The notes under the pieces are model-generated. The model ran no database searches, had not been told where the DNA came from, and was given only the letters and a program-made list of their open reading frames with translations. A stretch of 64,000 nt of DNA from Eledone cirrhosa (taxonomy: Eukaryota): positions 58,342,001 to 58,406,000 of the forward strand of contig OZ024743.1 in assembly GCA_964016885.1 (NCBI GenBank), given 5' to 3'. The translations under genes and the position numbers were made by a program. Positions 3,707 to 61,396 of this stretch are shown piece after piece. Each line of letters starts with the position of its first letter. Position 1 is the stretch's first letter.

Positions 3707-3801
3707 CTCCACACCCTTCATTAGATGGCGGTATTCAGGACATATAAAGGCATTTCCTGCAAATGCAGAGTCTATATGCAACCAGATACCTTCAGCTGCA
3801 C
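3707..3801 (-). CDS. DDC-like: DDC-like B exon 7 ([32 protein letters not shown])
   Basis: ttacag| ... GAG|GTAGG; 95 nt. Confidence 0.95.
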
Positions 3802-59700: not shown

Positions 59701-61396
59701 ACCTCCCAACCCCGAAATACCTGTATGTAAATAAGTATATTAATATGATAAATATTTCCTATAATGGAATCAAAACAAGTAACGTGTATATGACTTACCC
59801 AAGATATTACTACATTCACAAATGTATCTGTAAGCATTTCCGCCAGAATTGCTGCGTAAGATGTTTGAGCTGGTAAGTAACCAACGAAGTTAGGATGTAG
59901 CCAGTGACATAGCTGTTGGGTGAGACGTAGTATGACTTATAGAATCAAAGTCTCGGTATTGCAATTACTATAGCCATATCACATGTAACTATTTACCTGT
60001 GTAAATTATCAGAACTACACAATCAAAATCTGAAATGCAGGTTTATCTATTGGGGATTTCAAACAAAATCATGGAGAATCATATTCAGAAAAGAGCAAAT
60101 GTATATGCATGCCTATGTTGCGTGTGTGATGCATGTGAATATATGCGCTGCGTGTGTATGTGTGTATGCTGCGTGTGTAAGAATATATGAATTACAAATA
60201 ATGTGTATTCGTGTGAATAAATAGGATATGTTTCAAGACATTTTGAAATATTTCCAGTTAACAATGGCATAATTAGCAAGAAAACTTTCCTTCCTCTTAG
60301 TATGTATATTTATTCCAAGAGATAAATTCCTAACATCAATTTATCTCGTTTTGTTTTTAGCAAGAGGTAACCATTGCGACAAGGCAAACAGTAATTAAAT
60401 TTTAATAACCTGCAAAGATTTTGCAGAAAATATCTAAAAACTTACTTGCTAATTCAAATATTTGTAGTATATTTCCTAGCGGACAGATAGTTGTGAAAGT
60501 TTGCAGTATTAGATTAAAGACTCGTTTTTAATGTTACAGAAGCATAATGTTATTTTTTTACTATACTCAAATGGCTTGCCAATGAAATATCATGGGGTAC
60601 ATGTTGCTAAAACGAAAACCTCTTTTGCGTACAGCACACATCACTCCTTGTTATGGCAATATAGTTAACAACAGTATAGGAAAATAAACTAAAATGAATT
60701 TACGTATTAACTGTGTATTATATTTCGTCTTTCACTAATTTGCATATATATGTAAATGTTTATTTGATGGGCAAATTTCCTGAATTAAATACGAGGACAA
60801 AATTTCGTGACTCTTGTGTATTGCAACATTCAGCCACAACGAATGATAGAGAAAACAAATAAAATACTATTAAGTATATATTCTATCATTCATCATTATT
60901 TCACCACATCATAACTTATATAATAAAGTCGCTTGTGTGTCCATGAGACCTCCATAGTTCACAGGGTGTTTAGCGTGACAGTGTGTAACAGAGCTGACTC
61001 TACAAATTAGAGGTATGACGAATTTTTGCCAGATTATTGAACTGGAGTAACGTGAAATAAGGTGTCTGGCTGAAACACACAACGCGCCGTTGGAAATCAG
61101 ACATATTACATTACGTATGATTGTGAACCGAACACCCTAACCTATAAGCTACGCACCTTTCCTTAAAGTGTATTACAGTATCGAAAACTCACCCCTGGCA
61201 TAATCACTTTTTCGATATCATTAAAAACATCTTTCCATGTATCTGCAAATTCTGGAGCTTTTTGTGGTATTAAATGTCGCATAAAACCAGGTTTAACATT
61301 AGGGTAAACCTTTCTACTTTTAAGATTATCAAAATAGTCGATTATATATTTTGCTACTTCATTAGCAGCATTTATGAAATTTTGATCGCTTTCCAT
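38536..61396 (-). CDS. DDC-like: Aromatic L-amino-acid decarboxylase family gene, copy A (complete; 12 coding exons, 481 aa)
   Basis: Hand-spliced exons 61193-61396, 59799-59912, 58478-58597, 54726-54860, 46097-46240, 44982-45048, 44573-44667, 43980-44047, 43313-43403, 41205-41303, 40263-40364 and 38536-38742 give one open 1446-nt frame with GT-AG introns. Motifs: [53 protein letters not shown] (PLP Lys), [35 protein letters not shown]. Confidence 0.95.
40263..40364 (-). CDS. DDC-like: DDC-like A exon 11 ([34 protein letters not shown])
   Basis: gccag| ... AAA|GTAAGT; 102 nt. Confidence 0.95.
41205..41303 (-). CDS. DDC-like: DDC-like A exon 10 ([33 protein letters not shown])
   Basis: tttag| ... 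AAT|GTGAG; 99 nt. Confidence 0.95.
42030..42940 (-). mobile_element. Old R4/Dong 3' fragment
   Basis: [27 protein letters not shown] 3'UTR shared with ~6290; begins at a TATG repeat. Confidence 0.75.
43313..43403 (-). CDS. DDC-like: DDC-like A exon 9 ([30 protein letters not shown])
   Basis: tttag| ... ACG|GTAAG; 91 nt; catalytic-loop Tyr in PTYL. Confidence 0.92.
43980..44047 (-). CDS. DDC-like: DDC-like A exon 8 ([23 protein letters not shown])
   Basis: ttgcag| ... TG|GTACG; 68 nt; Schiff-base Lys in PHKW. Confidence 0.95.
44445..44556 (+). mobile_element. 5'-truncated tRNA/Nin-type SINE in copy A intron 7
   Basis: GCCGAGGTTAACTTTGCCTTTCATCCTTTCGGGGTCGATAAAATAAAGTACC. Confidence 0.8.
44573..44667 (-). 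CDS. DDC-like: DDC-like A exon 7 ([32 protein letters not shown])
   Basis: acag| ... AGT|GTAAGT; 95 nt; contains the PLP-binding Asp. Confidence 0.95.
44982..45048 (-). CDS. DDC-like: DDC-like A exon 6 ([22 protein letters not shown])
   Basis: tttcag| ... T|GTAAGT; 67 nt. Confidence 0.95.
45095..45300 (+). mobile_element. RTE-like LINE 3' fragment with (GAA)n tail (other copies at ~50515-50790 and ~58665-58980)
   Basis: GHV.RM...GRP.T..LDNIH..SWSRL.I coding remnant ending in a GAAGAA repeat, seen in three places. Confidence 0.7.
46097..46240 (-). CDS. DDC-like: DDC-like A exon 5 ([14 protein letters not shown]...KGLIPFY)
   Basis: ttccag| ... TAC|GTAAGT; 144 nt; contains the PLP-stacking His. 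Confidence 0.95.
46350..47531 (+). mobile_element. Tx1/L1-type LINE 3' fragment ending AATAAAGAAA-(TCTA)n
   Basis: NGELGMP, zf-RVT-like [24 protein letters not shown]; paralogous to ~49470-50340. Confidence 0.85.
47532..47648 (+). repeat. (TCTA)n microsatellite between two Tx1 copies
   Basis: Direct reading. Confidence 0.95.
47649..50340 (+). mobile_element. Tx1/L1-type LINE ORF2 (end of APE, RT, CCHC), degenerate
   Basis: [59 protein letters not shown]...[10 protein letters not shown]. Confidence 0.9.
51400..53105 (+). mobile_element. Penelope-like (Naiad-like) element, 5'-truncated
   Basis: [56 protein letters not shown]. Confidence 0.9.
53029..53078 (+). ncRNA. Minimal type I hammerhead ribozyme (identical to 26790-26839)
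   Basis: CCATTACGAGCTGAGGATCCGCTAAGGTGAAACAATTGTTCTCGGTATGG. Confidence 0.8.
54726..54860 (-). CDS. DDC-like: DDC-like A exon 4 ([16 protein letters not shown]...KLIAYKSTE)
   Basis: ccag| ... GAG|GTATG; 135 nt. Confidence 0.95.
55705..56440 (+). mobile_element. CRE-clade non-LTR retrotransposon 3' fragment (restriction-like endonuclease) with pentanucleotide tail
   Basis: [36 protein letters not shown]...AE..K..KY...PLAVETSG..G; (TACAC/TATAC)n at ~56330-56440. Confidence 0.8.
56980..57170 (+). mobile_element. tRNA/Nin-type SINE, full length
   Basis: Same family; flanking repeat TTATTATATTTAC. Confidence 0.85.
57077..57499. repeat. Fold-back inverted duplication centred on (TA)n
   Basis: 57077-57284 is reverse-complementary to 57311-57499, with one ~18-nt deletion in the second arm. 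Confidence 0.88.
58478..58597 (-). CDS. DDC-like: DDC-like A exon 3 ([40 protein letters not shown])
   Basis: ttcag| ... CAG|GTAAC; 120 nt. Confidence 0.95.
59799..59912 (-). CDS. DDC-like: DDC-like A exon 2 ([38 protein letters not shown])
   Basis: cag| ... TGG|GTAAGT; 114 nt. Confidence 0.95.
61193..61396 (-). CDS. DDC-like: DDC-like A exon 1 (MESDQNF...IEKVIMPG)
   Basis: ATG at 61396; 204 nt; donor GGG|GTGAGT. Confidence 0.93.

Follow-up and report, generated by a model that had tools for sequence, protein, structure and literature searches.

Divergent DDC-related genes with an altered substrate pocket in the octopod Eledone cirrhosa

Introduction

What does a decarboxylase act on when half of its substrate pocket has been rewritten and its catalytic residues are intact? 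This question is raised by two genes, A and B, in a 64,000-nucleotide stretch of the Eledone cirrhosa genome (contig OZ024743.1; C4:58342001-58406000 of the 3.0-Gb genome), the whole of which is referred to as the window. Both genes encode proteins related to aromatic-L-amino-acid decarboxylase (DDC, or AADC). From primates to octopods, 13 positions of the DDC pocket are constant, and one to four pocket or switch residues are altered in the derived enzymes known from this family. An octopod clade that combines so altered a pocket with intact catalytic residues predicts as yet unknown amine chemistry in octopuses.

From the comparisons described below, we lean towards the reading that A and B belong, as intact genes, to an octopod subfamily derived from DDC and that they have kept their catalytic residues and would decarboxylate an amino acid other than 3,4-dihydroxyphenylalanine (DOPA) or 5-hydroxytryptophan (5-HTP), likely a more polar one. 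The subfamily has apparently not been described: no description of octopus DDC paralogs was found in the full-text literature searched, in PMC5736919 or in the supplements of PMC9712504 and PMC9815951, a coverage that takes in few subscription papers and not the octopus genome paper of 2015. The paralogs are natural variants from which substrate choice can be learned, including at positions behind human AADC deficiency.

Genes A and B are intact members of a four-gene cluster

A preliminary description of the window had reported two same-strand AADC-family paralogs ~2.7 kb apart, with equal exon sizes, open frames and 174/293 shared residues, and a six-frame scan combined with splice sites and reading frame confirmed each of these features. 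Gene A lies on the minus strand, complete within the window, from an ATG at 61396 to a stop codon ending at 38536. It encodes 481 residues without an internal stop in 12 coding exons of 204, 114, 120, 135, 144, 67, 95, 68, 91, 99, 102 and 207 nt, and every intron is GT-AG. Gene B, on the same strand, begins with an ATG at 35866, which leaves a gap of 2669 bp (35867..38535) between the stop codon of A and the start codon of B. Its exons 1-7 have the sizes of those of A and lie in the window, exon 7 ending at 3707; exons 8-12, which carry Lys303, Tyr332 and Arg447, lie 4-19 kb past the left edge (C4:58338054-58323202). The predicted protein has 510 residues and is stop-free. The identity of A and B over their whole length is 274/481 (57%). 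In a profile search, the exons in the window scored above the cut-off of PF00282 (group II decarboxylases dependent on pyridoxal 5'-phosphate, PLP). In addition, intron-spanning contigs from three sequence runs over 38450-46300 showed no difference in coding sequence; these runs are possibly the assembly's own source and so non-independent.

We searched the genome with PF00282 and a paralog protein, an approach that gives lower bounds. Four PF00282-family genes lie within 220 kb: a canonical DDC, a third paralog (C), then B and A. The canonical DDC (C4:58183483-58245257, plus strand, 483 residues) shows 91% identity to its O. sinensis counterpart across 477 columns. Paralog C (C4:58268879-58315429, plus strand, converging on B) encodes 496 residues in 12 open exons with GT-AG introns. 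Elsewhere, assignment by motifs placed an HDC-type gene on C7, a TDC-type gene on C6 and GAD on C8 (E 7e-26 to GAD1), and a divergent CSAD/GADL-like gene with the lysine motif NFHK instead of NPHK lies far off at C4:362855614-362866573. No further paralog was seen, all 46 of 46 genome matches of the paralog protein being to genes of the cluster or of C6, C7 and C8, which is a lower bound. The scan of the flanking scaffold proposed earlier thus recovered paralog C and the canonical DDC. The "tandem pair" of the preliminary description holds for two adjoining genes and fails as a total, since three paralogs and a canonical DDC share the cluster. Neither A nor B is the ordinary DDC, TDC or HDC of the animal, these being separate genes.

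The substrate pocket is altered and the catalytic residues are kept

Residues are given in human numbering, taken from the gibbon protein P0142. The pocket list comes from bioRxiv 10.1101/404970 and was mapped onto this numbering after the alignment had been inspected; the 13-position string comprises its 11 pocket columns plus positions 80 and 102. This string is identical in gibbon, O. sinensis and E. cirrhosa canonical DDC. Gene A differs from it at 7 positions and gene B at 6, as compared with 3 in one TDC and 4 in one HDC, and its aromatic residues fall from 6 in DDC to 3-4 in the paralogs. The six residues of the catechol pocket (T82, I101, G102, F103, F309 and L353) are all changed in 7/7 paralog rows with full cover. 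G102V and F103I occur in none of 40 DDC, TDC and HDC rows. All paralogs share ten residues that none of the 40 other rows has (F21, C69, V102, I103, K106, K187, P308, C335, C353 and N404), and overall the paralogs agree with one another at 174 of 478 columns. In human DDC, Ile101, Phe103 and Thr82 touch the catechol and G102S raises Km ~11-fold (PMC8003434); Thr82, Ile101, Phe103, Leu353 and Arg347 are placed at the catechol site or in loop closure (PMC8003434, PMC3285636, PMC12443470). Conservation of Phe103 is described for the aromatic decarboxylases of both animals and plants (PMC6411801).

The motifs on which the preliminary description was built, VVISW and DASF in A, DVISW and DSAF in B and LGST in both, are all present in the translations, VVISW also in paralog C. 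Not all of them mark the clade. The Tyr-to-Phe part of the DAAY change occurs in the canonical DDC of this genome and in O. sinensis and Argonauta DDC, which read DAAF, cuttlefish and other molluscan rows being DAAY. The change of LGTT to LGST alters Thr245, not the pocket residue Thr246, and is missing from the Octopus paralogs. Stronger changes, unlisted in that description, are those of F309, R347, L353 and R356 (exons 8-10). Paralog C reads Pro at 309 and has Gln in place of His302. Loop 3 reads QCGR in A, B and C and PCGR in the Octopus paralogs, so that only the Cys is clade-wide.

By contrast, the residues of catalysis are conserved. The ring-stacking His192, Lys303, Tyr332, Arg447 and Gly354 are kept in 8/8 paralog rows; Asp271, which binds the pyridine, is kept in 7/8, with Glu in one O. 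vulgaris model; Trp71 and Pro81 are kept in 7/7 and His302 in 7/8. The catalytic residues have been held in all eight rows over a tree length of ~2.4 changes per site. The best PDB sequence matches of the paralogs are DDC (E 4e-163), and a model of the O. bimaculoides paralog P0275 had a mean predicted local distance difference test score (pLDDT) of 91 and a template modelling (TM) score of 0.97 to human AADC, from an input alignment that was mostly DDC. Since the catalytic residues are kept, decarboxylation is likely retained. The enzymes would form homodimers, bind PLP at Lys303 and lose CO2 from the external aldimine; the carbanion would then be protonated through Tyr332/His192 and the amine released.

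Along gene A, the changes fall as follows, all exons being on the minus strand. Exon 1 (61193..61396) matches human AADC at E 5e-15. Exon 2 (59799..59912) keeps W71 and Y79 and carries F80L, T82A, I101V, G102V and F103I; exon 3 (58478..58597) carries A106K and C111A; and positions 147-149 are altered (S, T, V) in exon 4 (54726..54860). His192 (codon at 46237) is kept in exon 5 (46097..46240), Thr246 next to T245S in exon 6 (44982..45048) and Asp271 in exon 7 (44573..44667). The Schiff-base Lys303 (44017) is kept in exon 8 (43980..44047) together with N300S, N308P, F309S and D310S, and the catalytic-loop Tyr332 (43354) in exon 9 (43313..43403) together with H335C, D345N and R347T. In exon 10 (41205..41303), loop 3 reads QCGRP as against PLGRR in DDC (P352Q, L353C, R356P). 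Exon 11 (40263..40364) was placed by splice sites and frame, and the last coding exon, 12 (38536..38742, including the TAA), keeps Arg447. Gene B begins with its most divergent exon, exon 1 (35663..35866), which is 35% identical to that of A. Exon 2 (33077..33190) carries T82A, I101D, G102V and F103I, and exon 3 (32594..32713) A106K and C111A. Exon 4 (23230..23364) was placed by splice sites and frame; exons 5 (20608..20751), 6 (17299..17365) and 7 (3707..3801) keep His192 (20748), Thr246 and Asp271, respectively.

The paralogs occur in Octopus

Searching with a profile built on the four first exons yielded a VVISW-bearing O. bimaculoides protein, which then served to gather further paralogs. 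Paralog-type models come from three O. bimaculoides genes and from O. sinensis and O. vulgaris, and each is labelled aromatic-L-amino-acid decarboxylase. Records of this type include XP_014775474, XP_014775469, XP_014775473, XP_036356876 and CAI9719284. Owing to this shared label, octopus expression studies could mistake the paralogs for dopamine or serotonin cell markers. The AADC primers of an O. vulgaris brain transcriptome paper (PMC3387010), read by eye, correspond to canonical DDC and not to a paralog. Among 147 fetched proteins of more than 300 residues, 124 have the motif (I/L/V/T)GF(S/T)W; VISW occurs in 12 and CGR(P/S)F in 15, all of them Octopus records and many of them isoforms. 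The altered pocket residues are therefore uncommon across molluscs. Argonauta and one cuttlefish cluster yielded only DDC-type proteins among the best 120 of 5953 matches, which does not show absence there. When short fragments were searched with P0275 exons 2-3 as the query region, 32 of 50 candidates matched, none above 69% identity and the named ones plant or fungal, so that no new paralog-type sequence was seen. Gene A exon 1 as sole query found no homologs, and the ESM Atlas held only generic AADC clusters.

Each O. bimaculoides paralog has several exon-skipping RefSeq isoform models, which suggests that these genes may be transcribed, subject to how such models are made. Among these paralogs (P0273, P0275 and P0277), exon 3 is 98% identical between the first and second and exons 6-7 are 100% identical between the second and third, beside exons at 40-60%. 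Such near-identical blocks would point to gene conversion or to a partial duplication of recent date. Two public models are faulty: in O. sinensis P0155, the first part of one paralog runs into the last part of a second, and O. vulgaris P0283 fuses a paralog to DDC. The latter fusion implies that paralog and DDC adjoin in O. vulgaris too, in a different order.

The paralogs descend from DDC

To place the paralogs, we calculated a quick tree of 49 rows, including TDC and HDC, in which they formed a single clade inside coleoid DDC. A careful tree of 23 rows, from which P0005, P0155, P0159, P0162 and P0168 were omitted (gappy, chimeric or replaced by full-length isoforms), gave the paralog clade support of 100/100 on a stem of 0.72 changes per site. 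The clade was sister to octopod DDC at 94/85 and nested in the coleoid DDC clade (100/100), apart from the TDC and HDC clades. The tree check proposed for these genes thus found them in an octopod paralog clade, and neither as a one-to-one DDC or TDC ortholog.

Approximately unbiased (AU) tests were performed on groups named after a tree had been seen. A duplication after the Argonauta split was rejected (p = 0.016) and one before the squid-octopus split was not (p = 0.16). On the sequences compared, the origin of the paralog clade from DDC is placed before the split from Argonauta. A, B and C form a group of their own (98/98), which indicates that copies multiplied, or were homogenised by conversion, separately in each lineage. 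Orthology of A to Octopus paralog 1 was not rejected (p = 0.077), and A is nearest that paralog in exons 2, 8, 9 and 12; these exon-wise affinities hint at a mosaic history. One-to-one orthology of B to the Octopus DVISW gene was rejected (p = 5e-8). Given that B stands apart from the Octopus DVISW gene, Asp101 either arose twice or survived conversion of the remaining gene.

We then compared rates of change. The path length to the nearest Octopus sequence is 0.11 for DDC and 0.55 for paralog C, the shortest branch among A, B and C. Synonymous divergence (dS, Nei-Gojobori) ranges from 0.49 to 0.64 among A, B and C; measured to DDC, it is saturated. The ratios of nonsynonymous to synonymous divergence (dN/dS) among the three are 0.58, 0.35 and 0.44 (95% bootstrap intervals 0.46-0.76, 0.28-0.46 and 0.37-0.62, respectively); between A and B, nonsynonymous and synonymous differences (pN and pS) are about equal in exons 4, 7 and 9. 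In a neutral simulation at 0.25 changes per site, ~9 stops accumulated per gene and 0/300 frames stayed open for A, likewise for B. By these measures, A, B and C are maintained yet fast-changing, three sequences being too few to part relaxed from positive selection.

Trees and alignments together show that DDC was duplicated in tandem and that one copy kept its pocket unaltered. The other gathered numerous substitutions along the long stem, of which ten are shared by every paralog and absent from the remaining rows; it was then re-copied, with three genes now here and three in O. bimaculoides, and still evolves ~five times faster than DDC. As for the lineage-specific expansion put forward in the preliminary description, the data seen confine the clade to octopods and place it under purifying selection, and a species-specific pair is not supported, the expansion being older and wider.

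The altered pocket may point to another substrate

The direct parent of the paralogs is DDC/AADC (EC 4.1.1.28; human 8ORA, pig 1JS3, Drosophila 3K40), their tandem neighbour, with exon sizes equal except in the terminal exons. Relative to octopod DDC, the paralogs are ~50-55% identical, with 6-7/13 pocket positions changed and loop 3 rebuilt. The lost catechol contacts (Thr82, Ile101, Gly102, Phe103, Phe309, Leu353) point, with less force than the kept residues point to decarboxylation, to a non-catechol side chain. Similarly, polar or charged residues gained at the pocket or close to it (Lys106, Gln/Arg83, Ser/Thr309 and, in some paralogs, Asp101) may point to a more polar one, and substrate preference likely differs between the VVISW and DVISW types. 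The pocket of GADL1 is positively charged (PMC5947694); for such a pocket, suited to acidic substrates, Lys106 and Gln/Arg83 are no more than suggestive, and Asp101 in B argues the opposite. The paralogs might be used in a secretory or other non-neural tissue, of which the salivary gland and ink suggested in the preliminary description would be conceivable examples. A fuller and decidedly tentative picture, which we consider unlikely as a whole, would have the paralogs as octopod-private, still diversifying synthases of amines from non-aromatic or unusually modified amino acids, partly converging on a GAD-type loop, with Asp101 gained twice, and supplying amines to saliva, ink or another secretion.

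Changes are also enriched in the pocket. Of the 185 columns conserved at ≥90% in 33 DDC rows, every paralog keeps 98, and 31 are changed in all; the latter include 5 of 11 pocket columns and 26 of 174 others (position 80 dropped, being <90% conserved), an enrichment that is modest (one-sided p = 0.021) and depends on a pocket list mapped post hoc. Several observations weigh against a shift to another, more polar substrate. The summed volume of the lining residues is down by 79-180 cubic angstroms, a poor fit to a simply smaller substrate, and on this ground a smaller pocket for a smaller substrate was rejected. Retention of Trp71, Tyr/Phe79, Pro81, Gly354 and, for the most part, Thr246 and His302 leaves room for an aromatic substrate. 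Drosophila DDC did not become a tyrosine enzyme through T82A/S, and Leu occupies position 103 in a bacterial enzyme specific for DOPA (PMC6411801). Finally, changes of R347 and L353 nearly abolish human DDC activity (PMC8003434, PMC12443470); the activity of the paralogs could therefore be low, though HDC rows have Met at 347.

Some of these observations would fit enzymes that are still aromatic amino-acid decarboxylases whose preference has moved or widened (tyrosine, m-tyrosine, beta-hydroxylated or ring-substituted aromatics, histidine, kynurenines), making bulk amine outside neurons. The lower lining volume leaves room for a ring, the best sequence and fold matches are DDC, T82A/S and K334Q are as in TDC rows, and Thr/Met at 347 resembles the Met of HDC. 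Tyramine and octopamine are abundant in octopus salivary glands, which also favours this explanation. Against it stand the absence of G102V and F103I from all DDC, TDC and HDC rows, the reported conservation of Phe103 (PMC6411801) and the existence of separate TDC-type and HDC-type genes. TDC and HDC, ancient DDC relatives with other substrates, have Ala/Ser82 and single loop residues in common with the paralogs. They read Ser354, Ser/Asn302 and Gly102-Phe103, whereas the paralogs read Gly354, mostly His302 and Val102-Ile103 and occupy separate clades and loci; membership of TDC or HDC was accordingly rejected (Gly354 in 8/8, His302 in 7/8). Taken together, we regard a persisting aromatic preference as rather improbable.

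Duplicates of AADC with new roles have precedent in insects and plants, and a change of the reaction itself was considered as an alternative. A rebuilt Phe103-Leu353-Arg347-Asp345 network could alter loop closure and give aldehydes, Pictet-Spengler adducts or another PLP product. All four positions are altered in most paralogs, human DDC defects at this network give cyclic PLP-DOPA adducts (PMC8003434), and DDC duplicates have turned into aldehyde synthases in insects and plants (PMC6411801, bioRxiv 10.1101/404970). The nearest precedents are lineage-restricted AADC-family duplicates with a new role, insect DHPAA synthase (DHPAAS; amd, PDB 6JRL) and the plant aromatic aldehyde synthases (AAS). 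In these the reaction was switched by Asn192 or by Phe at loop position 332 (PMC6411801); the paralogs instead keep His192 and Tyr332 in 8/8 rows, where DHPAAS has Asn and the plant enzymes have Phe, respectively, and it is the pocket that is rewritten. The insect aldehyde-synthase rows seen retain GF(S/T)W and PLGRR, and amd-type rows group with arthropod DDC, not with the paralogs. Both known switches being absent, the paralogs were rejected as aromatic aldehyde synthases, and we give a changed reaction of any kind little credence.

Equally small is the probability that we attach to weak or dead enzymes under loose constraint, or to non-catalytic partners that tune DDC through mixed dimers. 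Such a role would suit a dN/dS of up to 0.58, and near 1 in some exons; T69, G102, F309, R347 and L353 are human disease sites (PMC8003434), and many of the fixed changes lie in loops lent to the active site by the partner subunit (PMC8003434, PMC3285636). It fits poorly with catalytic residues conserved in every row over so long a tree, with three genes free of stops and frameshifts and with ten fixed derived residues.

Membership of GAD, CSAD or GADL1 was rejected, no ancestry being shared beyond the family: the match is far weaker (E 1e-36 to 1e-41, bits 130-144, vs 1e-161, bits 529-547, for DDC), and the likeness of loop 3 QCGR in A, B and C to the QC(G/S)R motif of GAD, and of Pro308 to the GAD exon of the same genome, is local only. 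Profile scores of 5 paralog rows exceed those of 16 DDC, TDC and HDC rows for PanP (86-100 vs 56-87 bits) and MfnA (64-77 vs 40-64); convergence on non-aromatic decarboxylases was rejected as evidence of substrate, an insect Asn192 row also scoring high (87 PanP, 70 MfnA) and the DABA decarboxylase model being unshifted.

Repeats and neighbouring sequence

The introns of both genes contain repeats and element remains. In intron 4 of gene A, window positions 46560-50108 hold GC-rich, broken remains of a LINE-type (long interspersed nuclear element) retrotransposon on the plus strand, with matches to RVT_1 and zf-RVT. Intron 3 of gene B contains long minus-strand frames (29677-32363), one with a GIY-YIG match, that are likely to be a Penelope-type element. 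A plus-strand frame of 208 residues in intron 6 of gene B (10952-11575), with C2H2 zinc-finger matches after a LINE-like start, is likely a retroelement tail. Two repeats are present in A and B at non-matching places, one of 1.37 kb (51748-53106 and 25531-26867, 90% identical) and one of 0.5 kb (63337-63832 and 6233-6731, 91% identical). In A as in B, exon 7 is followed by a short repeat of very high copy number. Outside the window, an exon of an OATP/SLCO organic anion transporter lies on the minus strand at C4:58437773-58438237, ~34 kb upstream of gene A.

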